Assembly: GCF_000018105.1 (NCBI RefSeq) | Contig: NC_009925.1 | Location: forward strand, 1,710,001-1,742,000 | DNA: 32,000 nt | Direction: 5' to 3' | Source of the DNA: Acaryochloris marina MBIC11017 | GTDB lineage: Bacteria > Cyanobacteriota > Cyanobacteriia > Thermosynechococcales > Thermosynechococcaceae | Part shown: positions 1-29,394 of the stretch, one piece after another | Layout: each line of letters opens with the position of its first letter | Numbering within the stretch: position 1 is the stretch's first letter | Notes under the pieces: generated by a model | The model's input: the letters and a program-made list of their open reading frames with translations, nothing else | The model's database searches: none | Told to the model about the DNA's origin: nothing | Position numbers and translations under genes: made by a program

Positions 1-1889
1 TCTGACTTTTCTGTATCAGTCACCAACCCTTCAATAAAAGAACGATCGATTTTCAGGGTGTCTAAGGGGAAGTTATGTAAAAAGCTCAGAGATGAATAAC
101 CAGTCCCAAAGTCGTCGATTTGGAGTTGAAGCCCCAAAGCGCGCAGTTGACTAATGAGTTCAGAAACCATCACCTCATTTTCCATAATCATGGTTTCTGT
201 AATTTCTAGCTTGAGGTGACGAGCACTGACTCCCGTCTCCGATAGAATCGATTGGATTTGTTTGCCTAAACTGGCCTGAGAAAACTGCTTACGGGACAAA
301 TTAACGCTAATACTCAAGGGTGGAATCTCAGTCAGGGTCTGATGCCACTGCCATAGCTGTTGACAGGATTCTTCCAGGACCCACTGACCAATCGCTAGGA
401 TCAATCCCGTTTCCTCCGCCACAGGAATAAATTCCTGGGGCGAAATTAAGCCTCGCTGAGGATGTTGCCAGCGGATCAGCGCTTCTAGGCTAACGATTTC
501 ATGGGTTTTGAGGGAAATAATCGGTTGATAATAGAGCTGAAATTCCTGGTTGGCAATGGCAGCTCGCAGGTCGGTTTCTACCCGAAGCAATGCCTGAACG
601 CGATCGCGCATGGCTGCTTCGAAGACGACATATCGAGACTTGCCCAGGGCTTTGGCTCGATACATGGCATTATCCGCATCCCGCAATAAATTTTCTGCCT
701 GGGGCGAATGGTCTGAATTCAGAGCAATCCCGATGCTGGCCGAAATATAAACTGTATGCCCCTGAAGTTCAAAGGCTTTCTCTAACTCTCGATTGAGACG
801 GCTGGCCACTTGTTCCGCTTGATCTTGCCCAGCAATATTCTCCAAAAGGATGGCAAACTCATCACCGCCCAACCGAGCAATCACATCACCGGGGCGTAAC
901 GCTGTTGTCAGCCGTTGAGCCACTTCAATCAGCAGCTGATCCCCAATGGCATGGCCCAAACTATCATTAATAACCTTAAACCGATCGCAGTCCAGAAACA
1001 GCACGGCAAATAGATAGTTGGTCTGGCGATTGACGCGCGTCAGAGTCCGATGAAGCTGGTCCAAAAATAACGCCCGACTGGGTAGCCCTGTGAGATGATC
1101 GTAAAGCGCCACATGGTTAGTGAGATCCGTGTGCGACCCTGCCATCCGTACCACGCGATTTTTGGGGCCAAACACCGCCATGCCGCGGCTACTGACCCAG
1201 CGATAGGACTGGTCCCGGTGAAGCATGCGATATTGACATTCAAAGGCGGTTGTTTCCCGTCGCAAATGCCGCCGTAAATCGATGCGGAATCGTTCCTTAT
1301 CTTCCGGGTGAATGCGATCAAACCATTCTTGAATAGAAGGCTGTAGCGTCACTTCTGCTTGGCCAATAATCGCGGCCCAACGGGGAGAATAATAAACTTG
1401 ATGGGTTTGTAAGTTCCAATCCCAAAGCCCATCATTTGAGGCTTGGGCCACCAAATTATATTGTTCCTCTCGCTCCTGCAACGCCACTAATGTCCGAGTA
1501 TGGTTAATGGCATAGCGAATCGACCGCTCCAGTAAAGCGGATGTAATCATCCCTTTCACCAAATAATCCGTCGCCCCTGCCGTCATCGCAGCTAAGTCGA
1601 TCTCGCGATCTTCCTGGCCCGTCAACAAGATAATCGGAATCCGATGGCCTAAAGCAACCACTTCTTCTAGCAAGTCCAAGCCTGTTCGACTGCCTAAGCG
1701 AAAATCGAACACATAAATATCATGCTGGTGACGCTGAACCGCCTCTAGTCCTTTGTCATAGGTATCCGCCCAGTCCAGATCAAACTGGATGCTTTGAAAA
1801 TCGTCTAGGAGATCTTCAAAAAAGAAATAGTCATCTTCATCATCTTCCACCAGCAATAGTTTGATATGCAGTGGATCAAGATGCCTCAC
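1..1889 (-). CDS. Receiver-PAS-GGDEF-EAL protein (c-di-GMP turnover); C-terminus cut by the window edge
   Basis: Absent from the ORF track because it runs off the window. My translation of the minus strand in the frame of GTG at 1889 gives: VRHLDPLHIKLLLVEDDEDDYFFFEDLLDDF...IILLTGQEDREIDLAAMTAGATDYLVKG (receiver); EWFDRIHPEDKERF (PAS-like, about 1328-1265); ARLGGDEFAIL (GGDEF, about 869); EALIRWQHP, DDFGTGYSS and LKIDRSFI (EAL, about 500-10). The frame is consistent at 1889, 1328, 869 and 5. The start codon is uncertain: GTG 1889 lies 11 nt upstream of the upstream gene's stop codon, and there is no nearby in-frame ATG. Confidence 0.85.
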   Translation of the reverse strand, partial: MRHLDPLHIKLLLVEDDEDDYFFFEDLLDDFQSIQFDLDWADTYDKGLEAVQRHQHDIYVFDFRLGSRTGLDLLEEVVALGHRIPIILLTGQEDREIDLAAMTAGATDYLVKGMITSALLERSIRYAINHTRTLVALQEREEQYNLVAQASNDGLWDWNLQTHQVYYSPRWAAIIGQAEVTLQPSIQEWFDRIHPEDKERFRIDLRRHLRRETTAFECQYRMLHRDQSYRWVSSRGMAVFGPKNRVVRMAGSHTDLTNHVALYDHLTGLPSRALFLDQLHRTLTRVNRQTNYLFAVLFLDCDRFKVINDSLGHAIGDQLLIEVAQRLTTALRPGDVIARLGGDEFAILLENIAGQDQAEQVASRLNRELEKAFELQGHTVYISASIGIALNSDHSPQAENLLRDADNAMYRAKALGKSRYVVFEAAMRDRVQALLRVETDLRAAIANQEFQLYYQPIISLKTHEIVSLEALIRWQHPQRGLISPQEFIPVAEETGLILAIGQWVLEESCQQLWQWHQTLTEIPPLSISVNLSRKQFSQASLGKQIQSILSETGVSARHLKLEITETMIMENEVMVSELISQLRALGLQLQIDDFGTGYSSLSFLHNFPLDTLKIDRSFIEGLVTDTEKS

Positions 1890-2346
1890 AACATTGCTCC
1901 GGGGGTAATGCCACAACGGTAAACCAGTACTGGCCTAGGGTTTGCATCACCTCAACTAATGCGTCAAAGGTCACAGGTTTGGTGATGTAGGTATTGGCCC
2001 CCAAGTCATAACTGCGGTAAATATCAATATCCGTATTAGAGGTGGTTAAGACCACAATTGGAATACGGCGGAGTTCAGGATTCGCTTTAATCTCCTGTAA
2101 TGCCTCTCGTCCGTCTTTCTTCGGCATATTGAGATCCAGCAAGATTAGACCGGGGCGGGGCGACGTTTTCGGGTCGGCATATTGACCTCGGCGAAATAAG
2201 TAATCCATCAATTCTTCGCCATCTTTGACAAAGCGAAGGTCATTACTCAGTCGGCTCTCCTCTAAAGCTTCGGCCGTGAGCATCCGATCATCTTCATCAT
2301 CGTCAGCCATCAAAATCGTAATCGGGGCAGCATTGACTGAGGTCAT
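1876..2346 (-). CDS. Single-domain CheY-like response regulator, Rcp1-like
   Basis: 156 aa ORF. It carries the acidic pocket ILMADDDEDD, the phospho-acceptor context LILLDLNMPKKDG, VVLTTS and KP. From memory, the overall pattern (PRPGLILLDLNMPKKDGREALQEIKANPELRRIPIVVLTTS...YWF) closely resembles Rcp1, the partner of cyanobacterial phytochrome Cph1. Its ATG overlaps the upstream kinase stop (ATGA at 2343-2346). Confidence 0.9.
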   Translation of the reverse strand: MTSVNAAPITILMADDDEDDRMLTAEALEESRLSNDLRFVKDGEELMDYLFRRGQYADPKTSPRPGLILLDLNMPKKDGREALQEIKANPELRRIPIVVLTTSNTDIDIYRSYDLGANTYITKPVTFDALVEVMQTLGQYWFTVVALPPEQCCEAS

Positions 2347-3815
2347 GATTGGGGCTCCATGGAGGTTTGGGTAAGCGGTAAGGTGATGAAAAATGTTGCG
2401 CCTTGGCCCGGTGAACTTTCAGCGGTGATGGTGCCACCATGATGCTCGGCTATTTTGGCACAGACCGCTAGGCCAATGCCCGTGCCATCATATTCATTGC
2501 GACTATGTAAACGCTGAAACACTCGAAAAATACGGTCCGTATACTTTTGCTCAAAGCCAATGCCATTATCTTCAACGCTGATTTGGTACAGGCTCTCGGT
2601 CTCAGTACTTTCATTAACCGACTGCCCGCCAATCGTGATGCAGAGGGGCTGATCCGGCTGACGAAACTTGAGAGCATTGCTAATCAGGTTTTGAAACAGT
2701 TGGCGAATTTGCATCGGTTCCGCATCAATCGTAGGTAACGCAGTCACCTCAACCTGGGCCTCCGTTTCCTGAATCCGAATTTCCAGATCATCTAAAACGC
2801 TGCCCACCACTTCATTGAGATCGACTTCAGTAAAGGGTTGTGACTTTGACGTCACTCGAGAAAAAGCTAATAGGTTCTGCACCAGTTGCCGCATGCGACC
2901 CGCCGCTTTTTGCATACGGTCCACATAATCTTTCCCCCGATCGCTCAGATCATCTCTACATTTCGTTTGTAATCGATCACCAAAGGCCTCAATTTTGCGG
3001 AGGGGCTCTTGTAAATCATGGGAGGCTACATAGGCAAATTGTTCTAATTCCTTATTGGAGCGGAGTAAGGCTTCATTCGAACGAGCTAGCGCCTCAGACT
3101 CTTCTGCTAGTTTGGCTTCAGCTTCCTGCTTGGCTTTTTCCTGCCGTATCAGAACGGCTTGAGCATAGCCAACGATAATGACGAGCACCCCATATAGCCC
3201 GACAAAGATAACGATAACGGCGATCAGCCCTTCTTGCTGAGCATCTTCTACCTGTTGTACGAGCGGTGTGACATTGCTATAGACCTCGATAACACCTTCA
3301 ATCTCTGAATCAGCACCCTGAGGCCGAAGGGGTAAATAGCTGGAAATCAGTTTTTTCTCTGTCAGGAGTCCCTGTACACCCCGAAATTTCTTTTTATGGG
3401 ACAGCTTAGTAATGGTTTCACCAGAACGCGCTGTCAGGAATCCAGAATATTTCGATTTATCCTGACCAATTTGTTTGGCGTTGGTCGAAAACACCACTCG
3501 ACCGTTTAAATCGAAAATTTTGAGTTTGGCGATGGACGTTCCTTGAATCAGACGACGAACGGTGTCATCGATATCTTCAATCTGAGGATGATTTTGTAAG
3601 TCTTTCCTAGATAAGGACTCCGTAGAACTCAAGAGAGATTTGTGCTGAGGCCATACCGAATTAGCAAAAACTTGGGTAATTTCAACATTCTTTTGCTCAC
3701 TCGCACTAATCAGTTGGGCCGTTGTCGTTTGCTGATTATAGTGCCGCAAGAAGAGGGTGGCGCTCCCACAGGCAACTAAACTCGCAATCGAAAAATATCG
3801 CAGTAACTTAAACAA
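2343..3815 (-). CDS. Membrane sensor histidine kinase (extracytoplasmic sensor domain, coiled coil, HisKA, HATPase_c)
   Basis: 490 aa. It has an N-terminal TM (FSIASLVACGSATLF), an extracytoplasmic segment of about 170 aa, a second TM (LIAVIVIFVGLYGVLVIIVGY) and a coiled coil (KAKQEAEAKLAEESEALARSNEALLRSNKELEQF). The H-box is FAYVASHDLQEPLRKI, the N-box NLISNALKF and the G-boxes DNGIGF and GTGIGLAVC. Confidence 0.9.
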   Translation of the reverse strand: MFKLLRYFSIASLVACGSATLFLRHYNQQTTTAQLISASEQKNVEITQVFANSVWPQHKSLLSSTESLSRKDLQNHPQIEDIDDTVRRLIQGTSIAKLKIFDLNGRVVFSTNAKQIGQDKSKYSGFLTARSGETITKLSHKKKFRGVQGLLTEKKLISSYLPLRPQGADSEIEGVIEVYSNVTPLVQQVEDAQQEGLIAVIVIFVGLYGVLVIIVGYAQAVLIRQEKAKQEAEAKLAEESEALARSNEALLRSNKELEQFAYVASHDLQEPLRKIEAFGDRLQTKCRDDLSDRGKDYVDRMQKAAGRMRQLVQNLLAFSRVTSKSQPFTEVDLNEVVGSVLDDLEIRIQETEAQVEVTALPTIDAEPMQIRQLFQNLISNALKFRQPDQPLCITIGGQSVNESTETESLYQISVEDNGIGFEQKYTDRIFRVFQRLHSRNEYDGTGIGLAVCAKIAEHHGGTITAESSPGQGATFFITLPLTQTSMEPQS

Positions 3816-5341: not shown

Positions 5342-5563
5342 AAGCGGTCCGGGAGATGTCTGTTTATATGAGCAATGTCAACCAGTTTATGGTGAGACCT
5401 TTGGCATTGTCCCGTCTCTATCGATCCTCCGTCCCCAAACCGATGAATGCCGACTCTTAAGGTCTTCGTCAAATTGTTAGTCTTCTAGCCAAGCTATACT
5501 GGCCTGCAAGTCCACCGTCCTGAAGCAAACCGAGCCTCTTACTGTTACCCGTCATCCATACCC

Positions 5564-6556
5564 ATGCCCAGTCAAGTTGAATATAAAACAACACGCCGGT
5601 TTATGAATATTTGGGTCTACTTGGCCCTCGGCGCCGTTGGCATGATCATTTTGGCAGGATTGAGTTCCATTTTTTTCGTCAAACCGTTAGCCTCCAAAAC
5701 CCTGCAGGCTCGGGAAGGTCAACCTGCACGATTACAGCCGTTTAAAGTTAAACCTCAAGCCATTGGAGCGGTCAGAGTAGATGTCACGGCCCGAATCCCC
5801 ACCAATCGCTACCTCGCCTATGAGGTGCAAATTCGAGACCAACAAGACAAAATCTTGGCAGCCGGCCTCAAAAATGCCTGGAATGAGTCAGGGATTTGGC
5901 GAGAAGAAGGGCAAACAGGCACCTGGCAAGAAGATGATTTAGACGCAGGTTTAGATGTCAGTAGTGCCAAAGCGGAACCCCTAACTGTTGTGGTCGAGGT
6001 GCTGGAGTATGGCACCTCTCGTAACCAGACCCTCACCGAGTCCGTTTCCTTCCGCATTAAAGTCAATCAAGGCATTATCGACACCCGCTATTTATGGCCT
6101 GGTTTTTGGGGTGGCTTACTGATGGCAGGTTTAACCTGTCTATTTTCCAAGTCGGCTGGAGCCACCTTAAGCGATAAAAGCATTGGGGATAGTGACTTAG
6201 GGGACCGAGTCAATGCCGGGGGGCCAAACAAACTCATCAAAGTCATCGTCAAAACTGTGGCCGACGAAACCTCTCCTCCTTCTCTCAACTGCCGACTAAT
6301 GGTCAGGGACGGCAATGGTGACGAGCTGTTTAATGCCTCGGAAGTGATGCCCCTCAAATTCAAGCGAGATGAAGACGGCGATATCGACAGTACCCACGGT
6401 CAAGCCACCTTTTTTATGGTGCTGGAAAAACCCAGTTCCTACGGGTTTTATGTTGAAGTCACCCCCGATGCTCCTGTCGATTCAACTCGGCTGATTATCA
6501 AGCAAGGTGCTGTGACTTTAGGGGCCGTCAAAGTCGCTCATATTGGCGCAGCCTAA
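5564..6556 (+). CDS. Hypothetical two-TM membrane protein with two soluble beta-rich segments
   Basis: 330 aa ORF. TM1 is IWVYLALGAVGMIILAGLSSIFFV and TM2 is LWPGFWGGLLMAGLTCLFS. I recognise no family motif. It is the first gene of a same-strand cluster with short gaps. An alternative start is M14 (5603). Confidence 0.6.
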   Translation: MPSQVEYKTTRRFMNIWVYLALGAVGMIILAGLSSIFFVKPLASKTLQAREGQPARLQPFKVKPQAIGAVRVDVTARIPTNRYLAYEVQIRDQQDKILAAGLKNAWNESGIWREEGQTGTWQEDDLDAGLDVSSAKAEPLTVVVEVLEYGTSRNQTLTESVSFRIKVNQGIIDTRYLWPGFWGGLLMAGLTCLFSKSAGATLSDKSIGDSDLGDRVNAGGPNKLIKVIVKTVADETSPPSLNCRLMVRDGNGDELFNASEVMPLKFKRDEDGDIDSTHGQATFFMVLEKPSSYGFYVEVTPDAPVDSTRLIIKQGAVTLGAVKVAHIGAA

Positions 6557-6627
6557 ATCCAGCTCCCTTCCCAAAGATGCAACTCGATTTTTTCTCATTT
6601 AGGATGGCAGTAGAAACCTTTTAAACT

Positions 6628-6858
6628 ATGCTGACAAAACTTTTTTCAGTCGCAACAGTCGCTATTGTAGTCGCTTCTATCTTGGCTGCATACACCCAAC
6701 GCTCCGCCTTTCAGCTTCGGCAAGAGAACCAGCCCCATTATTGGACCCGTCGCGGCACCCGAACCTCTGGGCGCTATCGCGGTGGTGTTTGGATCGTCTC
6801 TCCGGCCCGGTCTTCCTACAGCGGATTCCGCGGTGGCAGTCTGGGTGTAGGTAAATAA
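6628..6858 (+). CDS. Small membrane protein with an Arg/Gly-rich tail (hypothetical)
   Basis: 76 aa. It has one N-terminal TM (LFSVATVAIVVASILAAY) followed by the basic tail RRGTRTSGRYRGG...SYSGFRGGSLGVGK. It ends 8 nt before the next gene's ATG. The coding call rests only on position and architecture; an antisense ORF (6646..6885) of similar length exists. Confidence 0.4.
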   Translation: MLTKLFSVATVAIVVASILAAYTQRSAFQLRQENQPHYWTRRGTRTSGRYRGGVWIVSPARSSYSGFRGGSLGVGK

Positions 6859-6866
6859 GTTGCGGT

Positions 6867-8435
6867 ATGGCCGAGTCAGAATCAACCTCTGGGGGAGTCC
6901 AGAGGCCTGAATCTATTCCCCTCAGCTCTAGTCAGCAACGCTGGTTACTGGCAGCCGCTGCCATCTCTTCCAGTGTGGGCCTCGCCGCAGAATTACTCTT
7001 AGGAACCCTAGCCAGTTATTTAGTCGGCAATACTGCATTAGCTTACGGTGTAGCCGTAGGAGGCTTTCTAGCTGCCATGGGATTGGGAGCCTATATCAGT
7101 CAATTTATTGCCGTAGACAATCAACAAAGCCAGTTAATCAAAGTTTTCTTACAAATTGAGTTGTGGGTTGCCCCATTAACAGCTGGCTTACCCATTGGAC
7201 TGTTTGTCGTTTTTGTCGCCGATGGACCGATTTGGCTAGGGCTCTTTCTTGTAACCCTTATTTTGGGTATTCTATCGGGCCTAGAAGTCCCCATTTTGAC
7301 TCGCATTATCGAACAAGATCGGGACGTCAAGTTCGCCCTTGCTGGAGTCTTGGCCTTAGATTATGTTGGCGCTTTAATCGGTTCCTTGGCGTTTCCGGTC
7401 CTACTTCTGCCCCTGTTGGGATTATTTCCCACCGCCGTGCTGATCGGGTCTTTACCTGCCTTTATGGTCTTTCGGTTAGGACGCTTATTTCGAGGCATGC
7501 GATCCTGGAGTTATTGGGGCCTCTGCATTGGCGTTGGCTTATGTGTGTTTGCTCCGTTCGTGATACCGTTTAGCGATCGCTTAGAAAATACCCTGTACCG
7601 AGCCCCCATTGTTAGTCGTATTCAGTCCACCTACCAGCGCATCGTCCTCACCCGCTCTGGCAACGACACCCGGCTCTATCTCGATGGCGACCTCCAGCTA
7701 TCCACCGTCGATGAATACCGCTATCACGAAGCCCTGGTCCATCCAGCCCTGAGCACCCATCCCCAGCGACGCCAAGTGCTGGTGCTCGGAGCTGGAGACG
7801 GCATGGCCGTAAGGGAAATCCTTAAATGGCCGGAAGTTGAAAAAGTGGTGCTTGTTGAGCTGGATCCTGCCGTCGTGAAACTCGCCCGTCAGTATCCTGT
7901 GCTCGTCGATCGCAACGCCCATGCCCTAGACGATCCTCGGGTAGCCGTGGTGTATGGAGATGCCTTTAAGCTCGCCCCTCAGCTGCCGGATACCTTTGAC
8001 GTCATCATTGCCGATTTCCCAGATCCCGATCGCCCTGCCCTCGCCAAGCTCTACTCCCAAGGATTCTATCGACAACTGTTCGCTCGCCTTGCCCCCAACG
8101 GCATCTTCGTCACCCAGGCATCCAGTCCTTTTTTCGCCCCAAAGGTTATGGACTGTATCGCCACAACCCTAACAGCTACTGATTTACAGGTTTATCCCTA
8201 CACCGTCAATGTGCCGAGCTTTGGTCCCTGGGGGTTTGTCTTGGCGTCGCCGAAGCCAGTCCAGTTTTCATCCCAAAGCCTAACGGTTCCCACTCGGTTC
8301 CTGACCCCAGCCCTCCTCCCTGAACTCTTTCAACTTCCCAAAGATATTTCTATCGGTAACGCCAAGATCAATCGGCTCACCGATCCAGTTATAGTTCAGT
8401 ACCAAGCCGATCCACGCTGGTCGGCCTATTATTGA
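6867..8435 (+). CDS. Polytopic membrane-anchored spermidine-synthase-like aminopropyltransferase (SpeE-like)
   Basis: 522 aa. About 7 hydrophobic helices fill the first ~230 aa. A SpeE-type catalytic domain follows: YQRIVLT...RLYLDGDLQLSTVDEYRYHEALVHPAL, the SAM-binding VLVLGAGDGMAVRE, VELDP, GDAF, and IIADFPDP. Confidence 0.85.
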   Translation: MAESESTSGGVQRPESIPLSSSQQRWLLAAAAISSSVGLAAELLLGTLASYLVGNTALAYGVAVGGFLAAMGLGAYISQFIAVDNQQSQLIKVFLQIELWVAPLTAGLPIGLFVVFVADGPIWLGLFLVTLILGILSGLEVPILTRIIEQDRDVKFALAGVLALDYVGALIGSLAFPVLLLPLLGLFPTAVLIGSLPAFMVFRLGRLFRGMRSWSYWGLCIGVGLCVFAPFVIPFSDRLENTLYRAPIVSRIQSTYQRIVLTRSGNDTRLYLDGDLQLSTVDEYRYHEALVHPALSTHPQRRQVLVLGAGDGMAVREILKWPEVEKVVLVELDPAVVKLARQYPVLVDRNAHALDDPRVAVVYGDAFKLAPQLPDTFDVIIADFPDPDRPALAKLYSQGFYRQLFARLAPNGIFVTQASSPFFAPKVMDCIATTLTATDLQVYPYTVNVPSFGPWGFVLASPKPVQFSSQSLTVPTRFLTPALLPELFQLPKDISIGNAKINRLTDPVIVQYQADPRWSAYY

Positions 8436-8454
8436 AACACTCTAGAGGCAGACT

Positions 8455-9048
8455 ATGGCTTACCTTTGGCTATTTATCATCATCATGGGCGTATTGGGTG
8501 TTGTCATCTATATGAGACAACAGTCTGGTAAATCCCTCCCCTTCGCCTCCCAACCCCAAGCGTTACCATCCCTCGAACGCACTGTTTTTACTCTAGAAGT
8601 GGGTGATATTGTTCAACATATGGGAACAGACTGGATCGTTGAAGGCAAACTCGTCTATGACGATCAAGGCTACTCCTGGTTAGAGTATCTATTGCAAGAC
8701 GGCAATCGTCGTCAATGGCTCTCTGTTGAAGAAGATGATGTCGTGGAAGTAGCGCTTTTAGAGGTCACCACAGCCTTGGAAGTTGGCACCAATCCACCCC
8801 CAGAACTGACCTTCGCCAATGAGACCTACCGCCATAAGGGATCTGGTATGGCTCAAATGACCCGCAAAGGGACTACTCTCAATCGCAATGCTGAACGGTG
8901 TCAATATTTTGACTATCAGGGACCAAATGACAAAATTCTCTCCATTGAAAATTGGGATGGCGATATTGAAGTGACAATCGGCCAAAAAATTCATCCCTCT
9001 ATGCTGACCTTACTCCCTGGGGATGGTCGTCGTATTTACGGGGCTTAA
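8455..9048 (+). CDS. DUF4178-domain protein with N-terminal TM anchor
   Basis: 197 aa. The TM is YLWLFIIIMGVLGVVIY. The following LEVGDIVQHMGTDWIVEGKLVYDDQGYSWLEYLLQDGNRRQWLSVEEDD matches the DUF4178 signature as I remember it. It starts 19 nt after the SpeE-like gene. Confidence 0.75.
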   Translation: MAYLWLFIIIMGVLGVVIYMRQQSGKSLPFASQPQALPSLERTVFTLEVGDIVQHMGTDWIVEGKLVYDDQGYSWLEYLLQDGNRRQWLSVEEDDVVEVALLEVTTALEVGTNPPPELTFANETYRHKGSGMAQMTRKGTTLNRNAERCQYFDYQGPNDKILSIENWDGDIEVTIGQKIHPSMLTLLPGDGRRIYGA

Positions 9049-10342: not shown

Positions 10343-11002
10343 TTAGCGAGAACGGTTCATCTTCCGTTTAGCCAACACACCAACAACTCCCAAGCAGGCA
10401 AATAAACCAGCGGTAGCCGCTTCAGCAGGCTCAGGAACGCTAGGAGGAGCTGGATCAGGAGGGTCAATTACTGGAGGTGCAGGGTCAGCGGGATCATCAT
10501 CGCCTCCAACCACAAAAGGAATCGCTGCTGCTGCTGCGCCTGCTGGAATCAATGCAGCTGCCAAAGGGAAACCTGCGGCAGCGGGAAGACCCCCTTCAGG
10601 GGCGACACCGCCAATTCCACAATCAATCAACCCATTCTCTGCAATGAGGGTCTGAGAGGACAGCAATCCGGTTGACACATCCGAGGTGGTCGCATTAGCC
10701 AGCAAGTTGGGTCCCGAAGATTGGCTCAATGGCCCCGAGGATTCTTGTAAAGCTTCAGGGGAAATAATGGGCTCTTCTTCACAAACATCGCTTTGAGCGG
10801 TCTCTGTATTGAGCTTTGAGTCAGCCTCAATCGAATCCCCAAGACCAAGCTGAGCAGCATGGCTGAAGGGAGTATTGATAGCGTTATACAAAACGACCAA
10901 CGATAAGGCAGTCAATGAGCCACATGTCTTTAACAATTTCATAGTTGAGATTCGATCCTTAGATAGTTTTCCCCGCTTGATATTCGAAGACGAAGCTACC
11001 AT
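10343..11002 (-). CDS. Secreted PEP-CTERM sorting-domain protein, Ala/Pro/Gly/Ser-rich
   Basis: 219 aa. The C-terminus ...PSVPEPAEAATAGLFACLGVVGVLAKRKMNRSR is a PEP motif, a TM and a basic cluster. A signal-peptide-like MKLLKTCGSLTALSLVVLYNAINTPFSHA begins at the second Met, so the real start is probably 10942. Confidence 0.75.
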   Translation of the reverse strand: MVASSSNIKRGKLSKDRISTMKLLKTCGSLTALSLVVLYNAINTPFSHAAQLGLGDSIEADSKLNTETAQSDVCEEEPIISPEALQESSGPLSQSSGPNLLANATTSDVSTGLLSSQTLIAENGLIDCGIGGVAPEGGLPAAAGFPLAAALIPAGAAAAAIPFVVGGDDDPADPAPPVIDPPDPAPPSVPEPAEAATAGLFACLGVVGVLAKRKMNRSR

Positions 11003-11953: not shown

Positions 11954-12964
11954 ATGGGTAAGCAACGTGTTCTTTCAGGTGTCCAACCCACTGGCACCCT
12001 TCACTTAGGTAATTACTTGGGAGCCATTCGGAATTGGGTCGAAGGACAGAGTAACTATGAAAACTATTTTTTTATTGCGGATCTCCATGCCATCACTGTT
12101 CCCCATGATCCTCAACAACTAGCCGATAATACCTATTCCCTTGCTGCCCTGTATTTGGCCTGCGGCTTAGATCCTGAACACACTACAATCTTTGTTCAGT
12201 CCCATATCTCTGCCCATGCAGAACTGGCCTGGCTATTTAACTGCATTACACCGCTTAATTGGCTCGAGCGCATGATCCAGTTCAAAGAGAAGGCCCTTAA
12301 GCAAGGAGAGAACGTCAGCATTGGCTTACTCGACTATCCCGTTTTACAAGCTGCCGACATCCTGCTGTATCAAGCGGATCTAGTGCCCGTGGGAGAAGAC
12401 CAAAAGCAGCATCTAGAGCTCACCAGAGATATTGCAGCCCGTCTAAACTTTCAGTATGGAACCGAAGAGAATCCTATTCTCAAGGTGCCAGAGCCTCTTA
12501 TTCGGCCAGAGGGGGCCCGGATCATGAGCCTGACAGACGGCACTAATAAAATGTCAAAGTCAGATCCCTCGGAACAAAGTCGAATTACCTTACTAGACAC
12601 TCCCGATCAAATTCGCAATAAAATTAAGCGCTGCAAAACTGATCCCGTCCGAGGACTGAGTTTTGATGATCCAGACCGCCCAGAATGCCAAAATCTGCTG
12701 ACCTTATATCAGTTAATGTCAGGGCAAGCTAAAACGGCAGTCGCAGAGGAATGTGCAGAGATGGGCTGGGGACAGTTCAAGCCCCTGCTGACTGAGGTAA
12801 TGATTGAGGGCCTGCGCCCCATCCAAGACCGCTATACAGCGTTAATGACGAATAAACAAGATTTGGAGGGGGTTCTCCAACAGGGCAAAGACCAAGCCAG
12901 TGAGATTGCCAACAAGACCTTAACGAAGGTCAAGGATGCTTTGGGTTATTCTCGGCCCCTCTAA
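11954..12964 (+). CDS. trpS: Tryptophan--tRNA ligase
   Basis: 336 aa. It has the class I motifs GVQPTGTLHLGNYLG (HIGH-type) and KMSKS, plus the TrpRS-typical GEDQKQHLELTRDIA. Confidence 0.95.
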   Translation: MGKQRVLSGVQPTGTLHLGNYLGAIRNWVEGQSNYENYFFIADLHAITVPHDPQQLADNTYSLAALYLACGLDPEHTTIFVQSHISAHAELAWLFNCITPLNWLERMIQFKEKALKQGENVSIGLLDYPVLQAADILLYQADLVPVGEDQKQHLELTRDIAARLNFQYGTEENPILKVPEPLIRPEGARIMSLTDGTNKMSKSDPSEQSRITLLDTPDQIRNKIKRCKTDPVRGLSFDDPDRPECQNLLTLYQLMSGQAKTAVAEECAEMGWGQFKPLLTEVMIEGLRPIQDRYTALMTNKQDLEGVLQQGKDQASEIANKTLTKVKDALGYSRPL

Positions 12965-14928
12965 GGGTGACTGGTTTGGGTAACCGGCATTAGATCTTGG
13001 GAGTCACTAGGCGCCTCTAAGGGCAGCGTGAAATGAAATGCGCTGCCTTGATCGCGTCCGGCAGATTCCGCCCAGATTCTGCCATTCATCCCTTGAATCA
13101 CTTGTCGGCAAATGGCTAATCCCAAGCCCGTACCGCCTTTACTACGCCGCAGAAAGTCTTCTTCTTGATAGAAAGAATCAAAGATAGATTCCAATCGGCT
13201 CGGCTCAATGCCTCTCCCAGTATCGGCGACAATGACTTCCAAACAGTCATCGTCTGGGGCAATATGAGCTTGAATGGTCACTTCTCCATCCACCCCTGTG
13301 AACTTACAAGCATTATCCAGAATCCGATTAAGCACTTCTTCTAGGCCTTCCGCATCGACCTGAATGGTGGGTAGATGCGGATCAACCTCCACACTGATGG
13401 TGGGTAAATCTTTACTGTTATTGCTCGATCGCATGGAACTCAAGGCCAGCTCTAGGGTTTCTTGAAATTCAATGGACTCAATTTGGTTATAGATTTGTCC
13501 CCCCTCTAACCGAGAGAGAATTAGAATATCTTGAATCAAATCCCGCAAACGACCTAAGTCTTCTAGGGCCGTGCTCAGGAGAGCTTGGCGAAAGACTGGC
13601 GAAATATCCGGTTCACTATCCAAACTTTCTAAACAAACCTGGATAGTAGACAGGGGAGTCCGCAGTTCATGGCCAACAATGGCAATCAAATTACTCCGGG
13701 TTTGTTCGAGAGCAGCCAAGTTGCGGTTAAGGGATTCAGAATCTGAATAGGCTTGAGCTTGGGTGAGGGCAACCCCGGCTTGGGCAGCAATGGCTTCGAC
13801 TAGGGCAATATCATTTTCATGCCACTGATAAATCAGGGGTCCACCATGGTGCAACTCTAAGACCCCCAACAATTCTCCCTGATGTCGAATCGGGGCAATC
13901 AACCAGGAATGAATTTGCCATTGTTCTAACTTGGCTGCAAATTTTTTATCTTGGCGCAGGTGTTGAACTTCAAAGACATCGGCAATGGCAATGGCCCGTT
14001 CTTGGGCTAGAGCAACAGATAAGAGAGGGTTGGTGCTAATGGGCCAGGGGGTTCCTTGTAAGGAGGGCAAGCCTGGGGCCACAAATTCATATTCAATTTC
14101 AACGGCTTCATCGGTGCGATCGCAACAGTAGAGAATACACCGACAATGCTCGAATACTTTACCTAACTCATTGACGGCAACCGCCAACACTTCTTTCGGG
14201 TCAAGGGATTGGCGGATCGCAGCCGTCATGGCATTGGCAAACCGCTCTTTTCGTTCTTTAGCCGATAGGGCTCGATAGGCTTTGAGTAATTTGTATTGAC
14301 TCGCCTGTAAATAAGTCACCAATCGCTGGCCAAACACCCGAGATTGCAAGACAGGCAAGGGGGGAATGGAAGAAGTCGAAGTTAAACAGTATTGCTTCTT
14401 GGCCTTTTTGACTTTAGACGCCAGCTCAGGACGATATTGGGCAATCCGATCCAACAGAAGGCTGGCGGCATGCAGGCACACGTCTCGTTCAAAGGTCCAA
14501 ATGCCTTCGTACCGTTGAGACTGTTCGACGGACGTGAGTACTTTCTTCTGTTCTTGGCAGGCCAAGCAGGCCGTGTAGTCTTGACCCACGATAATCAAAT
14601 GTTTTTCGTTGGCCAGACTATCCTCAAGATCGAGGGGAATGGTTTCGTATTGATCGGATGCGATCGCAAAACTGGATTCCGGTTCAGGGGCTGCCAGAAC
14701 ATAGACATGGTCTGTCTTTTGAGCAATACGCTGATATCGACGGGTTTCTTGGCGATAAAAGCGCTCCTGTTGAAAACTAGCAATGACGAGGGGGGCTTCA
14801 TTTCCCGCCAGCACAACATCTTCAATGGCCCGACAGAGAGCATTGAGAGACGACTTAAAATACATCTGTGGATGCAGATCTGGTAAGTCCGTTAACAGAG
14901 TCTGCAACAAAGAGTCTAAATTACTCAC
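12961..14928 (-). CDS. Cytoplasmic sensor histidine kinase: N-terminal sensory domain (DICT-like?) - GAF - HisKA - HATPase_c
   Basis: 655 aa with no TM segment. A GAF-like core spans about aa 235-390 (...IHSWLIAPIRHQGELLGVLELHH...). The H-box is GHELRTPLSTI and the N-box ILDNACKF. The G-boxes are DTGRGI and GTGLGLAICRQ. From memory, the N-terminal ~130 aa (LVIASFQQERFYRQETRRYQRIA..HVYVLA) resembles the DICT domain. Confidence 0.9.
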   Translation of the reverse strand: MSNLDSLLQTLLTDLPDLHPQMYFKSSLNALCRAIEDVVLAGNEAPLVIASFQQERFYRQETRRYQRIAQKTDHVYVLAAPEPESSFAIASDQYETIPLDLEDSLANEKHLIIVGQDYTACLACQEQKKVLTSVEQSQRYEGIWTFERDVCLHAASLLLDRIAQYRPELASKVKKAKKQYCLTSTSSIPPLPVLQSRVFGQRLVTYLQASQYKLLKAYRALSAKERKERFANAMTAAIRQSLDPKEVLAVAVNELGKVFEHCRCILYCCDRTDEAVEIEYEFVAPGLPSLQGTPWPISTNPLLSVALAQERAIAIADVFEVQHLRQDKKFAAKLEQWQIHSWLIAPIRHQGELLGVLELHHGGPLIYQWHENDIALVEAIAAQAGVALTQAQAYSDSESLNRNLAALEQTRSNLIAIVGHELRTPLSTIQVCLESLDSEPDISPVFRQALLSTALEDLGRLRDLIQDILILSRLEGGQIYNQIESIEFQETLELALSSMRSSNNSKDLPTISVEVDPHLPTIQVDAEGLEEVLNRILDNACKFTGVDGEVTIQAHIAPDDDCLEVIVADTGRGIEPSRLESIFDSFYQEEDFLRRSKGGTGLGLAICRQVIQGMNGRIWAESAGRDQGSAFHFTLPLEAPSDSQDLMPVTQTSHP

Positions 14929-19582: not shown

Positions 19583-20935
19583 CTAAAATGCTTTCTGCCA
19601 ACCCAGGGTTAACACCCAATCTGTTTCTAATTGGGGGCCATCCAGGGACTGATAAACCGGCAGGGCAAACTCTACGGCTAACCGATGGCCTGCCAAGACT
19701 CCCTGATTGACGAGAAAGTTAAGTCCCAAGCCCACATCCAAACGGGTTCCTCCTCGGAGATTGGGGTTGGCGGTCGGGATAATCGCCGGATTCAGGCGAG
19801 GATCGGCACCTATAATATTGCCCCAGGTCGCCCCTTTCAACCGTATCGAGGTACTAAACCAGTTATTCCAACGGCGGGCTCCCCATCCTGTTAGATTGAA
19901 GCGGTTGCCAAGCCGATAGCTATTCCCGTTCGTTCCTAGACGAATGGTGCCTAAGGCCTGTCCGCCCCAGGACCAATGATCGGATTGGCCTAAATAGGTG
20001 ATCCCAGGGTGTAAATCAAAAGTGCCTGATCCCAACTGCATGGGATAGGGAAGGACTTGATTTGGACCTGCAGGGGTATCGTCTCTGCGGTTAGTCGATC
20101 CAGTTGGGAAGCTGATCCCCGCGTTGAAGTGAATCCGCTGCCGATCTTGATCGAGAATTTTGTACAGCCCCATCAACTGAATATCCCCAAAACCATCGGA
20201 CTGAGTGGTAAACCGTGTCCCCATACGGGTGACATGTTCCATACTTTTGAAGATATAGGGAGCCATCACACTCAGAGTGAGTTCATCAGTAGGGGCATAC
20301 ATGGCTCCAAACATGTGCATGTCCGTCGTCATTTCGGTGGGGGTAACTGGAAACTGTTGCAATACTTGAGCAGGCGTCAAATCAGTTGTGCCATCTCGAT
20401 TGCCCGCCATATCCATCCGCATAAAGCGGTAGGAAAACATCACTTCGCCCGCTCCATGGGTATGATCGCCCATGACACCAATCGGTGCATGGCCGTCGGG
20501 ACGCCCTGAACGCCACAGGTTATCTGAGGATTCTGCCGGTTCCGACTTATCATCCTTCTCAGCAGACGGTTCTTCTTCAGCTGAGTCACTCTCCAGGCGA
20601 TCGGCAATATGTAGGGGGGCATCCCCTGAGGCAATAACACCCCAATCTTGAGGATGATCAACCGATTTCGGTTTTAGTTCAGCCATGGTCTGGAGGCTCG
20701 ACTTAACACCCGTTTGTGGATCATCAGAAACCTCGTTTTGGAGATCAGAGTCTAAAACAACGAGTTGCGCTTCAGAACCCTTGAGAGAAAACAGCTCTGA
20801 AACTTCTAGCAGTTGGGGCTGCTGTACTTTGAAATCTTCTGCCATGCAGGGCTCTATTCCTAGAAGAATAGCGAGGATCATGGCACCAGAAGACTGTAAT
20901 GCCTGGGGAGAACACCAAAGGAGGTTAACTTTCAA
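19583..20935 (-). CDS. Outer-membrane beta-barrel protein (transporter-like, possibly Phenol_MetA_deg-type) with an acidic N-terminal extension
   Basis: 450 aa with a signal-like N-terminus (MILAILLGIEPCMA). An acidic low-complexity stretch (ESDSAEEEPSAEKDDKSEPAESSD) precedes HAPIGVMGDHTHGAGEVMFSYRFMRMDMAG. The last ~300 aa show an alternating beta-strand pattern, and the terminal residue is an aromatic F (LGWQKAF), typical of OMP barrels. The family assignment is from memory only. Confidence 0.65.
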   Translation of the reverse strand: MKVNLLWCSPQALQSSGAMILAILLGIEPCMAEDFKVQQPQLLEVSELFSLKGSEAQLVVLDSDLQNEVSDDPQTGVKSSLQTMAELKPKSVDHPQDWGVIASGDAPLHIADRLESDSAEEEPSAEKDDKSEPAESSDNLWRSGRPDGHAPIGVMGDHTHGAGEVMFSYRFMRMDMAGNRDGTTDLTPAQVLQQFPVTPTEMTTDMHMFGAMYAPTDELTLSVMAPYIFKSMEHVTRMGTRFTTQSDGFGDIQLMGLYKILDQDRQRIHFNAGISFPTGSTNRRDDTPAGPNQVLPYPMQLGSGTFDLHPGITYLGQSDHWSWGGQALGTIRLGTNGNSYRLGNRFNLTGWGARRWNNWFSTSIRLKGATWGNIIGADPRLNPAIIPTANPNLRGGTRLDVGLGLNFLVNQGVLAGHRLAVEFALPVYQSLDGPQLETDWVLTLGWQKAF

Positions 20936-28730: not shown

Positions 28731-29378
28731 TCACTCTGGAATACTCACCAATTGTCGAACCTCTATTGATATATCAGGAAAAGCAACAGGACAGACGATT
28801 CCGTCACTCGCTACATTTTGAGTCGAATAATCACCATCCCATAAGTCTCTAAACATTGTCATTTCCCTTCCAGTCACATCAATGACCCAATACTCCGCAA
28901 TACCTGCTTCCGCATAGAGCTTTCGTTTAGTGTTCAAATCGTAAGCCAGAGTAGAATCTGCAACCTCCACCAACCAATAAATATCTTCTGGATAGGGATG
29001 ATGCTGTAGATAAAGAGTATCGGGTAGACGAACAACTGCAATGTCTGGCTCTGGCTCAGACTCCGCTAGCGTGACGGGATGGGCCTCAAACACTTCTGCT
29101 TCTCCCTTCATCATCTCGCGTAAATAGTTGCCCCCACGATGATTAACAAATCGATGAAATTCACCTTCGGGAACCATATCCCAAATCTCTCCATTAATCA
29201 GCTCACAGCGCCGCTGATCGAGAATGCCTAGCTTGCGCATATGCTGATAGTCTGCAACTGACCATTTGGTTAGTGTCCGCACAACTGCACTCTCCCTTAC
29301 AGGCCGAAGGTGTATCCATATCCTAACTTCACCCGACAGCCGACTCTGAGATCTATCAACATACGAGATAGTGAACAA
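28731..29378 (-). CDS. Uma2 (DUF820) family PD-(D/E)xK-like putative endonuclease
   Basis: It has WSVADYQHMRKLGILDQRRCELINGEIWDMVPEG, PDIAVV, the catalytic-like WLVEVADS, and KRKLYAEAGIAEYWVIDV. The first ~32 aa are not family-like; GTG at 29282 (VRTLTKWSV...) is a more plausible start. Confidence 0.8.
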   Translation of the reverse strand: MFTISYVDRSQSRLSGEVRIWIHLRPVRESAVVRTLTKWSVADYQHMRKLGILDQRRCELINGEIWDMVPEGEFHRFVNHRGGNYLREMMKGEAEVFEAHPVTLAESEPEPDIAVVRLPDTLYLQHHPYPEDIYWLVEVADSTLAYDLNTKRKLYAEAGIAEYWVIDVTGREMTMFRDLWDGDYSTQNVASDGIVCPVAFPDISIEVRQLVSIPE

Positions 29379-29394
29379 CCCCAGCCATTTTTAT

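Follow-up and report, generated by a model that had tools for sequence, protein, structure and literature searches.

The window analysed here, 32,000 nucleotides of Acaryochloris marina MBIC11017, holds four consecutive genes for predicted membrane proteins, one of which carries a spermidine synthase-like (SpeE-like) domain. Does such an array make bulk cytosolic spermidine, or does it serve aminopropyl transfer at the membrane or envelope? We favour the second answer and read the whole as a cyanobacterial, PspA-less envelope module, a reading to which we assign an even chance (probability about 0.5).

Four genes kept together

All four genes are on the + strand at the coordinates given by the initial annotation: ORF1 (5564..6556, 330 aa), ORF2 (6628..6858, 76 aa), ORF3 (6867..8435, 522 aa) and ORF4 (8455..9048, 197 aa), separated by 71, 8 and 19 nt. 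The 222-nt region between ORF1 and the divergent mnmE (5342..5563) presumably contains the module promoter; neither a sigma-70 consensus above background nor an Rfam element was found in it. Downstream of ORF4 and in the same orientation comes bioB, after an 83-nt spacer; it lies outside the conserved unit, the conservation of the mnmE and bioB flanks being limited to Acaryochloris.

Whether the four genes are also neighbours in related genomes was a check that the initial annotation had proposed, and they are. The order ORF1-ORF2-ORF3-ORF4 is kept across cyanobacteria in a set of 80 loci where ORF1 identity is only 36-45%: ORF1 is followed by ORF2 in 79/80, ORF2 by ORF3 in 60 of the 66 loci with enough sequence, and ORF3 by ORF4 in 46/49. 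Median spacers are short (57, 57 and 92 nt), and in distant versions of the module start and stop codons overlap, with overlaps of 4 nt. Because the order recurs at such divergence and between differing flanks, the arrangement is not due to chance, and ORF1-ORF4 are one conserved unit. Six cyanobacterial loci carry ORF1-ORF2 without a nearby SpeE-like or DUF4178 gene (four of the six with an upstream DUF350 gene), which could mean that ORF1 and ORF2 also function apart from the enzyme.

At least 27 of 80 other cyanobacterial loci, and likewise Synechococcus-type contigs, have a divergently transcribed DUF350 gene ahead of ORF1; this window has none there. Since neither the window nor the Acaryochloris loci have a DUF350, speD, amine oxidase or PspA gene adjoining the module, parts of the model proposed below are borrowed from distant relatives.

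Across phyla, ORF1-like and ORF2-like proteins co-occur with 7-TM SpeE-like and DUF350 genes. A Proteobacteria MAG (L084) encodes DUF350, an ORF1-like protein, a small peptide ending in GK, an amine oxidase and 7TM-SpeE. A Myxococcota MAG (L085) has DUF350, 7TM-SpeE, a GK-ending lipoprotein and a Rosetta-stone fusion of the ORF1 N-domain to DUF4178, and the same gene set is found on a metagenome contig of unknown taxon (L091). On a Novosphingobium plasmid (L116), SPFH, two DUF4178 genes, a small peptide, DUF350, 7TM-SpeE, an amine oxidase and speD are present. The amine oxidase gene adjoins the module in Proteobacterial versions, and in three lineages the adjacent oxidase bears a twin-arginine (Tat) signal (SRRRFFG, TRRSFL, TRRQVL), of which the Pfam TAT_signal match is weak.

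The membrane-bound SpeE-like enzyme

ORF3 scores 564 bits against NCBIfam NF002956/PRK03612 (cutoff 472, residues 12-520) and matches Pfam Spermine_synth at 1.6e-41 (residues 284-463). Assignment to NF037959, 'fused MFS/spermidine synthase', was rejected in favour of NF002956, as ORF3 reaches only 30.7 bits there (cutoff 40), with a match confined to the catalytic region. The NF002956 model is an equivalog whose plain name, 'polyamine aminopropyltransferase', sits uneasily with an envelope-specific role.

The catalytic domain (residues about 248-496, 7608..8354, + strand) aligns with solved SpeE and ACL5 structures. The nearest are thermospermine synthase 6bq2 (3.9e-39), aminopropyltransferase 7xif, Bacillus subtilis SpeE 1iy9, and 1uir and 3anx, which we take to be the Thermus triamine/agmatine aminopropyltransferase, with E-values of 1e-35 to 1e-39. 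The spermidine synthase motifs quoted in the initial annotation are present, and among 67 homologues the residues Q257, G274, Q277, D282-E283, Y286-H287-E288, G308-x-G310-D311-G312, E317, E/D331, D333, D365-A366, D383 and D386-P387 are invariant or nearly so. Judged by sequence, no catalytic motif of the dcAdoMet-dependent aminopropyltransferases is missing from ORF3.

The estimate of about seven TM helices also stands: seven hydrophobic spans lie within residues 27-236, both in the single sequence and in a profile averaged over the 67 homologues. This hydropathy-defined domain (residues about 26-236, 6942..7574, + strand) has no match in Pfam and contains four acidic residues within the membrane, E42 in 66/67 homologues and E98, E140 and D165 in 67/67. 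Such invariant buried residues, and the description of the domain as transporter-like (Ravi et al., PMC11237479), would suit a transporter or sensor whose SpeE-like domain binds a ligand without catalysis, for example to regulate a polyamine channel made of the 7-TM domain and DUF350. We regard this as highly improbable, because the catalytic and dcAdoMet-binding motifs, all of them kept in distant homologues too, would not be expected to be invariant or nearly so in a domain that only binds; the speD gene co-encoded in Novosphingobium also speaks against it.

The same intact motifs fit a simpler proposal, in which ORF3 is a plain membrane-anchored spermidine or thermospermine synthase supplying the cell's polyamines and its three neighbours are accessory or unrelated. 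The score above the equivalog cutoff, the closeness to genuine thermospermine, spermidine or triamine aminopropyltransferases, and the Novosphingobium speD gene all agree with it. It is nevertheless unlikely in view of the tight linkage of the enzyme, across phyla, to three or four uncharacterised membrane proteins, of the Tat signals of the partner amine oxidases, and of the distribution of loop charges. Mean K+R is 10.7 for the N-terminus together with loops 2-3, 4-5 and 6-7, against 0.0 for loops 1-2, 3-4 and 5-6. By the positive-inside rule and the hydropathy count of TM spans, this alternation most likely gives the catalytic domain an extracytoplasmic position. The outward orientation would in turn require dcAdoMet outside the cytoplasm, for which we know of no precedent. 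Ordinary synthesis is also disfavoured by a related membrane-SpdSyn-like fusion from the work of Li and colleagues in 2019, which reportedly failed to complement an Escherichia coli speE mutant and whose hosts are said to be without spermidine. The preference for an envelope role over bulk synthesis, voiced already in the initial annotation, is thus strengthened by the predicted topology, the Tat-signal oxidases and the conserved membrane partners.

The membrane partners and a proposed mechanism

The AlphaFold2 model of ORF1 (mean pLDDT 87.8) has two helices, 16-38 and 177-196, each followed by an all-beta domain (40-171 and 200-327). Foldseek returned only generic jelly-roll/beta-sandwich matches for it, at TM-scores of 0.25 or less, and neither ORF1 nor ORF2 matched a family in Pfam or NCBIfam. 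Among 1.84 billion representative proteins, profile searching gathered 113 members of the ORF1 family, none with a database name other than 'hypothetical protein'. The first domain contains a Trp/Glu-rich motif, AWxESGxWxExGxxGxWxExD (residues 105-125, 5876..5938, + strand), where A105, W106, E108, G110, G119 and W121 are invariant and W112, E114, G116, E123 and D125 conserved at 90% or above in 43 sequences; it recurs in remote homologues from Proteobacteria MAGs, Myxococcota MAGs and metagenomes. From the flanking charges and the lipobox-type N-termini of remote homologues, ORF1 is predicted to have its N-terminus inside and domain 1, with the motif, outside the cytoplasm. By analogy with the polyamine-binding sites of PotD/PotF-type proteins, we propose that the motif may bind polyamines.

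ORF4 is a TM-anchored DUF4178 protein, as annotated: it matches Pfam DUF4178 at 1.9e-42 (domain residues 49-181) and has an N-terminal TM helix at 2-23. Its AlphaFold2 model (mean pLDDT 87.6) shows an all-beta domain, for which no PDB structure was matched at E < 0.001. Mean K+R in 51 homologues is 0 before the TM segment and 2.8 after it, from which the DUF4178 domain is predicted to be cytoplasmic. Non-cyanobacterial DUF4178 proteins are without a signal sequence; two have an N-terminal CxxC-rich segment, the larger one with a weak Pfam zinc-ribbon match.

ORF2 has a hydrophobic segment (5-23) followed by a basic, Gly-rich tail. The initial annotation had given every product a TM anchor, and hydrophobic segments are indeed present in all four, but the one in ORF2 is not necessarily a permanent anchor and might serve as a signal anchor or as a signal peptide that is cleaved off. 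The family consensus ends in ...RSSYGGFRGGGPGxGK; the C-terminal motif FRGGxxGxGK-COOH spans residues 67-76 (6826..6855, + strand), and its terminal Lys is invariant (K is the last residue in 79/79 ORF2-type sequences, and GK the last two in 78/79). The ORF2 family profile gave 52 database matches, all named 'hypothetical protein'. Similar endings close the small exported peptides of the non-cyanobacterial operons, GGFRGGGTSLGK (L084), YRGGGVRGGK (L085) and SFRGGGLHGGK (L091). The suggestion that ORF1 and ORF2 are lineage-specific did not hold: both are kept in all major cyanobacterial groups, picocyanobacteria included, and have remote counterparts in like operons of Proteobacteria and Myxococcota MAGs and of metagenome contigs of unknown taxon.

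This unusual ending raises the idea that ORF2 is itself the acceptor, ORF3 aminopropylating the epsilon-amine of the ORF2 C-terminal Lys once or several times to give a polyamine-tailed peptide that ORF1 binds or presents. The constancy of the GK ending, even in the three remote operons, is as expected from this idea, and the gene order is suggestive: the ORF2 gene adjoins the enzyme gene (8-nt gap here, 4-nt overlap in locus L081), and the peptide gene comes directly after it in L085 and L091. Moreover, the signal sequences of the remote peptides are of lipobox or AxA type and would put the tail on the predicted side of the catalytic domain. There is also an analogy in E. coli, where YjfC and YgiC are peptide-spermidine ligases and yjfC lies beside the genes of a DUF350 protein and of a DUF1190 protein (YjfM), the latter membrane-anchored and with a Gly-rich tail. 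However, the charge distribution of cyanobacterial ORF2 favours a cytoplasmic tail, opposite the predicted catalytic side, ORF2 and YjfM are not recognisably homologous (hhalign probability 0.2%), and the six loci with ORF1-ORF2 have no enzyme gene nearby. To our knowledge, no aminopropyltransferase acts on protein lysine. Overall, aminopropylation of the peptide appears quite unlikely.

In the envelope module as we favour it, ORF3 would aminopropylate an amine at the membrane or envelope, with its catalytic domain facing the periplasm or lumen, and the 7-TM domain, with its four buried acidic residues, might move a cationic substrate (dcAdoMet, for example) or the product through the membrane. 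ORF1 would span both compartments, its outer Trp/Glu-rich beta-sandwich binding either the product, a cation, or the basic, glycine-rich ORF2 tail, while its inner beta-sandwich and the membrane-tethered ORF4 could together form the face of the complex toward the cytoplasm. In other phyla, that face would be coupled to PspA/CesT or band-7 proteins, a coupling that suggests a role of the module in membrane homeostasis or stress. The initial annotation knew of no experimentally defined function for such a module, and we found none in the literature for any of the partners. For the molecule on which the module acts, the analysis offers concrete candidates.

Comparison with known systems

ORF3 agrees with the soluble aminopropyltransferases (SpeE, ACL5, 1uir and 3anx) in its catalytic fold and in every signature motif. 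It differs from them by an added N-terminal 7-TM domain with buried acidic residues, by a catalytic domain predicted to lie outside the cytoplasm, and by an operon with membrane partners. Membrane relatives of SpeE with conserved active-site residues are also predicted in the archaeon Haloferax volcanii (HVO_0255 and HVO_B0357), with no equivalent partner genes reported, and disruption of HVO_0255 leads to a stress phenotype, hypochlorite hypertolerance (PMC6267482).

The E. coli yjfIJKLMC genes (DUF2170, PspA-family YjfJ, DUF2491, DUF350 YjfL, DUF1190 YjfM and the peptide-spermidine ligase YjfC), together with ygiBC, resemble this type of module in their make-up: a membrane protein of the DUF350 family, a small protein anchored in the membrane whose tail is rich in Gly, Arg and Ser, and an enzyme for polyamine-type attachment chemistry. 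The E. coli enzyme, however, is an ATP-grasp ligase and not an aminopropyltransferase, and no DUF4178 or ORF1-like protein is among the annotated genes of the region. The fusions of Li and colleagues, considered here with NCBIfam NF037959, reportedly join an MFS-like membrane domain to a SpdSyn-like domain and cluster with AdoMetDC and DUF350. They share with ORF3 the C-terminal position of the aminopropyltransferase-like domain and the DUF350 association, whereas no AdoMetDC gene adjoins the module in cyanobacteria. Both raise the idea of an acceptor other than putrescine, which for the SpdSyn-like fusions is cited by Ravi et al. (PMC11237479).

A counterpart to the whole module is the 7TM-SpeE/DUF350/DUF4178 operon type, reported from computational analysis in Ravi et al. 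2024 (mSystems, PMC11237479), and the link of membrane SpeE-like, DUF4178, DUF350 and PspA genes that the initial annotation had named is thus real and published. In Shewanella, the SO_3765 operon encodes a lipoprotein (Ctha_1186 with a low-complexity region), DUF350, signal/TM-Spermine_synth, CesT/DUF2170, PspA, DUF4178 and RHH (PMC11237479). Like the module here, it combines a 7-TM SpeE-like enzyme, a DUF4178 protein and a small protein, exported or anchored, whose Gly-rich tail is of low complexity, and by description ORF2 is plausibly the counterpart of the Ctha_1186 lipoprotein. Its DUF350 gene is shared by many cyanobacterial relatives, although none is adjacent in the window, while the PspA/CesT dyad and the RHH gene are absent from both the window and the conserved neighbours. 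The Acaryochloris module is a PspA-less variant of this widespread and already described operon type, hence not novel in kind; it differs by the membrane anchor of its DUF4178 protein and by the addition of ORF1, a two-TM double beta-sandwich protein not described by Ravi et al. (PMC11237479).

The four-gene unit and its conservation in cyanobacteria

The four neighbouring genes, all on the same strand (+) and separated by 71, 8 and 19 nt, lie exactly where the initial annotation had placed them, and hydropathy and AlphaFold2 models agree on the membrane segments, at least one in every product, as it had predicted. ORF1 (5564-6556, 330 aa) has predicted TM helices at residues 16-38 and 177-196, and ORF2 (6628-6858, 76 aa) has a hydrophobic segment at residues 5-23; neither has any match in Pfam or NCBIfam. 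ORF3 (6867-8435, 522 aa; Spermine_synth, NF002956) has seven spans within residues 27-236. ORF4 (8455-9048, 197 aa) combines a helix at residues 2-23 with a DUF4178 domain (Pfam PF13785, 145.1 bits vs a gathering threshold of 25, E = 1.9e-42), its residues 49-181 aligning to positions 2-136 of the 136-position model, so that the last gene does encode a TM-anchored DUF4178 protein, as had been read from the sequence. Searched separately against Pfam, the 7-TM domain of ORF3 and each ORF1 domain gave no match. The unit is flanked upstream by a divergent mnmE and downstream, after 83 nt, by bioB on the same strand. Scans for promoter and terminator consensus sequences and an Rfam search for riboswitches or RNA elements returned nothing above background, and neither speD, a soluble speE nor PspA/Vipp1 was found among window ORFs of at least 150 aa.

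A profile search with ORF1 on one-genome-per-species contigs retrieved 80 loci, all cyanobacterial, covering among others Acaryochloris, Leptolyngbyaceae, Coleofasciculus, Moorena, Calothrix/Rivularia, Scytonema, Phormidium, Geitlerinema and Dactylococcopsis. ORF1 is followed by ORF2 in 79 of these 80; on contigs of sufficient length, ORF3 comes after ORF2 in 60/66 loci and ORF4 is found no more than 3.5 kb from ORF3 in 46/49. Median gaps in the cyanobacterial loci are 57, 57 and 92 nt, and overlaps of 1-4 nt take the place of gaps in picocyanobacterial contigs. When every ORF of the 80 loci was clustered all against all, ORF1-ORF4 came out as the only widely shared families, with no further conserved neighbour. 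Since ORF1 identity is only 36-45% and the flanks are unrelated, the linkage appears to be selected rather than due to chance. The shared strand, the short gaps and an order kept in distant genomes identify the four genes as a predicted operon, and the operon-like unit first proposed from gene spacing extends across cyanobacteria. bioB was rejected as a fifth member of the unit, and mnmE as linked to it, since the five Acaryochloris loci alone keep these flanks.

At least 27 of the 80 loci have a small, divergently transcribed gene of the DUF350 (YjfL) family immediately upstream of ORF1, as do further contigs, among them Synechococcus-type ones, L081 and L086; tblastn found no DUF350 in the 32-kb window or in the Acaryochloris loci (L001-L005). 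Six loci with room downstream (L024, L026, L035, L040, L066 and L075, from Limnospira, Lyngbya, two Dactylococcopsis, Baaleninema and Brunnivagina) have ORF1-ORF2 without a nearby SpeE-like or DUF4178 gene, the enzyme having been sought within 3-6 kb downstream, and four of them have the upstream DUF350 gene. ORF1, ORF2 and DUF350 thus form a sub-module separable from the enzyme, at least by gene position. Downstream of ORF1-ORF2 in one of the Dactylococcopsis loci (L035, 7492-10858), four paralogous genes of 153-164 aa are interleaved with two of 205-229 aa, in what looks like a repeated two-gene cassette.

Several other features were noted around the unit. Two sensor systems flank it in the window (12961-14928 and 1876-3815, both on the minus strand), one a DICT-CHASE6_C-GAF histidine kinase, the other a histidine kinase gene overlapping a stand-alone receiver gene by 4 nt; neither is kept beside the module in other genomes. 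A 219-aa ORF (10343-11002, minus strand) has a hydrophobic segment near its N-terminus, contains a region rich in Pro and Ala and ends ...PEPAEAATAGLFACLGVVGVLAKRKMNRSR; it has no Pfam/NCBIfam match, and its ending resembles a PEP-CTERM (exosortase) sorting signal. A putative 450-aa ORF with a TTG start (19583-20935, minus strand) also has no Pfam/NCBIfam match. A class A penicillin-binding protein (22993-25242, plus strand; TIGR02074 above cutoff) has transglycosylase and transpeptidase domains and an N-terminal FHA domain, which suggests that peptidoglycan synthesis is controlled by Ser/Thr phosphorylation. At 28731-29967 (minus strand), a TerD-domain gene (190 aa) adjoins a Uma2-family putative endonuclease gene (215 aa). 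A solitary DUF4178 gene in Thalassoporum PCC 7367 lies beside a TerB-domain gene (L083), perhaps a sign that DUF4178 and Ter stress proteins are connected.

ORF3 as a putative aminopropyltransferase and its predicted orientation

ORF3 scores 564 bits against the NCBIfam equivalog NF002956/PRK03612 'polyamine aminopropyltransferase', over the cutoff of 472, with residues 12-520 aligning to model positions 7-520 of 522, and matches Pfam Spermine_synth at 1.6e-41. The match to NF037959 (fused MFS/spermidine synthase) was below cutoff (30.7 bits vs 40) and confined to residues 301-437. Its signature motifs (GxGDG, the acidic ribose-binding residue, D-A, DxxDP and Y-H-E) align with those of 6bq2 and 7xif, and its catalytic domain matches solved thermospermine, spermidine and triamine aminopropyltransferases at 1e-35 to 1e-39. 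Score, motifs and the N-terminal polytopic domain together class ORF3, from its sequence, as a membrane-type polyamine aminopropyltransferase, and the early description of about seven TM helices joined to an intact spermidine-synthase fold was accurate. Invariant or nearly so in 67 homologues are Q257, D282-E283, Y286-H287-E288, G308-x-G310-D311-G312, E317, E/D331, D333, D365-A366, D383 and D386-P387. The 7-TM domain likewise holds conserved acidic residues inside its helices (E42 in 66/67 homologues; E98, E140 and D165 in 67/67 each), which would be suited to cation binding or passage and would be congenial to a ligand-binding transporter or sensor that has given up catalysis. Such a role is nevertheless very improbable, because the catalytic residues are so nearly invariant that a catalytically dead sensor is not expected.

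The distribution of positive charges bears on where this chemistry may take place. On family average, the N-terminus and loops 2-3, 4-5 and 6-7 of ORF3 carry 10.7 Lys+Arg, loops 1-2, 3-4 and 5-6 carry none, and 2.2 are found in the 15 residues that follow TM7. For a protein of seven spans, the positive-inside rule would predict a cytoplasmic N-terminus and a catalytic domain on the other side, for which we infer, from these sequence statistics, a location in the periplasm or thylakoid lumen. An independent hint comes from amine oxidases encoded next to the enzyme in three lineages, which have twin-arginine signals (SRRRFFG, TRRSFL and TRRQVL), one of them also with a clear lipobox and a weak Pfam TAT_signal match; amine chemistry tied to the 7-TM enzyme thus appears to be extracytoplasmic. 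ORF3 might still be an ordinary membrane-anchored spermidine or thermospermine synthase, as its similarity to the solved enzymes would allow; set beside the predicted outer position of its catalytic domain, this seems unlikely to us.

ORF1 is predicted to be N-in, with its first beta-sandwich outside and its second inside; the predicted outer domain bears an invariant Trp/Glu-rich motif (residues 105-125), and in remote homologues the first hydrophobic segment resembles a lipoprotein signal. Averaged over 51 homologues, ORF4 has no Lys or Arg before its TM helix and 2.8 after it, predicting a cytoplasmic DUF4178 domain. Soluble DUF4178 homologues have no signal sequence, and two of them have an N-terminal CxxC-rich segment, the larger of which has a weak Pfam zinc-ribbon match. 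As for the ORF2 tail, charge favours the inside in cyanobacteria, and lipobox or AxA signals favour the outside in remote homologues; the candidate signal-peptide cleavage site in cyanobacteria always has Gly, Ala or Ser at -1 and often Phe or Trp at -3. Literature that mentions M. tuberculosis Rv2601 offered no data on topology.

The ORF1 and ORF2 families and the candidate acceptor

Structure searches did not assign a function to ORF1 or ORF4. The ORF1 AlphaFold2 model (pLDDT 87.8) drew only generic beta-sandwich/jelly-roll matches from the PDB at TM-scores of at most 0.25 (SIDT1/2 ectodomains, viral capsids and CBM22), which, for the model, is no functional assignment, and the ORF4 DUF4178 model (AlphaFold2, pLDDT 87.6) had no PDB match at E < 0.001. 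A faint similarity of DUF4178 to lipid-binding half-barrels (RseB, LolB, FABP; probability at most 0.41) was set aside. The notion that the ORF1 C-domain is a divergent DUF4178 domain drew no sequence-level support (hhalign probability 0.2%) and was set aside, as was kinship of ORF2 with DUF1190 (YjfM), also at an hhalign probability of 0.2%, for which only the analogy is kept.

Both unnamed families reach beyond the lineage to which they had at first been assigned, with relatives in picocyanobacteria, Proteobacteria and Myxococcota MAGs and metagenome contigs. A profile search of 1.84 billion representative proteins returned only 113 ORF1 relatives, the distant ones including picocyanobacterial proteins and two proteins from non-cyanobacterial MAGs. 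The Proteobacteria MAG locus (L084) encodes DUF350, an ORF1-like protein, an 81-aa peptide whose C-terminal end is GGFRGGGTSLGK, a flavin amine oxidase, a TM protein and a 7-TM Spermine_synth protein, all genes overlapping by 4 nt; in the Myxococcota MAG locus (L085), an ORF1-like gene is accompanied by genes for DUF350, a 7-TM Spermine_synth protein and a lipobox peptide of 90 aa that ends YRGGGVRGGK. In three weaker relatives (P0275, P0278 and P0262), the ORF1 N-half with YWxESGTWxExGESGTWxE is joined to a DUF4178 domain after the second TM helix. Their genes are ordered DUF4178, fusion protein, DUF350, followed by the 7-TM enzyme in L087, the only one whose contig is long enough. A metagenome scan added a locus (L091) with a Sel1 lipoprotein, fusion protein, DUF350, 7-TM enzyme and an 83-aa peptide ending SFRGGGLHGGK. 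These fusions argue that ORF1 and DUF4178 act in one membrane-spanning complex.

On plasmids, tblastn turned up two further arrangements: the 7-TM enzyme with an amine oxidase behind it on Ralstonia megaplasmids and, on Novosphingobium plasmid p1, the series SPFH, DUF4178, composite protein (CxxC-rich segment, DUF4178, TM helix and beta-rich domain), 48-aa peptide, DUF350, 7-TM enzyme, amine oxidase and speD. The locus on the Ralstonia solanacearum megaplasmid (L115, 5866-9079) is a minimal pair, 7-TM aminopropyltransferase then Tat-signal flavin amine oxidase, with no DUF350/DUF4178 protein among nearby annotations; experiments on the system could conveniently begin with this genetically tractable pathogen.

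ORF2 and the proteins remotely related to it are short, start with a hydrophobic stretch or a lipobox, and end in a low-complexity tail rich in Gly. The terminal residue is Lys in 79/79 family members and the ending Gly-Lys in 78/79, and a database search with the family profile retrieved 52 proteins, every one named 'hypothetical protein'. One reading of this ending is that the ORF2-type peptide, with its candidate acceptor end ...SSYSGFRGGSLGVGK, is the true substrate, the 7-TM SpeE-like enzyme aminopropylating the epsilon-amine of the invariant C-terminal Lys on the external side of the membrane. The 7-TM domain would then supply dcAdoMet, the aminopropyl donor, across the membrane, and the product would be a ribosomally made peptide with a polyamine tail. 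Given the divided signals on the side of the tail, we hold this to be a long shot.

In its general form, the reading that we prefer is that the module carries out envelope-directed aminopropyl transfer rather than bulk spermidine synthesis, at a probability of about one half. ORF3 would aminopropylate a membrane or envelope amine, or export its product; ORF1 would connect the chemistry outside with a platform in the cytoplasm, formed by its C-domain and DUF4178, that in other phyla may be coupled to PspA or band-7 membrane-stress proteins. Polyamine sites of PotD and PotF are built of aromatic and acidic residues, and by analogy the Trp/Glu-rich outer domain of ORF1 may bind a polycation, either the product or the Arg/Gly-rich ORF2 tail. 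The interpretation offered in the initial annotation is supported in part: it agrees with these results on the operon, the recurrence across phyla, the lack of a known function and the envelope orientation, and has to be given up as to the lineage-specificity of ORF1 and ORF2.

Three handles are now available on the system: the predicted outside catalytic domain, the Tat-signal amine oxidase in proteobacterial relatives and the ORF2-type candidate acceptor. If the acceptor is an envelope component or peptide, polyamine biochemistry would extend beyond free cytosolic polyamines and would bear on the membrane stress biology of photosynthetic bacteria. Were the peptide itself the substrate, both the protein modification and this use of the spermidine-synthase fold would be new.

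Relation to known polyamine-linked operons

The E. coli operon yjfIJKLMC encodes a PspA-family protein, the DUF350 protein YjfL, the DUF1190 protein YjfM and YjfC, annotated as a peptide-spermidine ligase. YjfM (L117, E. coli K-12, 7388-8026), whose gene directly precedes yjfC, contains the lipobox-like sequence LKGC and has a tail, rich in Gly, Ser and Arg, that ends ...ARGHWGG. Its C-terminal Gly-Gly could be the ligation site, making YjfM a candidate physiological substrate of YjfC, a proposal that we did not find in the literature surveyed. Aminopropylation of an ORF2-type peptide, if true, would be convergent with the E. coli peptide-spermidine ligases YjfC and YgiC, and would account for the presence of two unrelated polyamine enzymes next to small, Gly-rich-tailed proteins in DUF350 operons of analogous make-up.

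Fusions of MFS-like and SpdSyn-like domains, clustered with AdoMetDC and DUF350, were reportedly described by Li et al. in 2019, and are said to have failed to complement an E. coli speE mutant. An operon described in Shewanella, among other bacteria, encodes a lipoprotein (LipoSIG, Ctha_1186 and a low-complexity region), DUF350, a signal/TM-Spermine_synth protein, CesT/DUF2170, PspA, DUF4178 and RHH, with variants that include band-7, AdoMetDC and polyamine oxidase, and the PspA systems were proposed to monitor polyamines or 'aminopropylation of other substrates' (Ravi et al. 2024, PMC11237479). The recurrence of membrane SpeE-like, DUF4178, DUF350 and PspA-family genes as neighbours, which the initial annotation had pointed out, is thus documented (Ravi et al. 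2024, PMC11237479). With this operon type and the yjf parallels, the kind of module is already known, from comparative genomics only, in line with the earlier remark that no experimentally defined function is known for it; membrane-fused SpeE-like, DUF350 and DUF4178 proteins are widespread and have been noted by that approach alone (2019, 2024).

Like the operon of Ravi et al. (group 2), the window has 7-TM Spermine_synth and DUF4178 genes on the same strand, 19 nt apart. In contrast to it, the cyanobacterial form is without PspA, CesT and RHH (no member of the PspA or CesT families was found among window ORFs of at least 150 aa), the window is also without DUF350, and ORF1, which we found undescribed in the literature surveyed, is added. 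The locus is therefore a stripped-down version of the module, conserved across cyanobacteria, and what it contributes anew are two unnamed partner families, one of membrane proteins with a Trp/Glu motif and a predicted beta-sandwich on either side, the other of small peptides ending in Gly-Lys.
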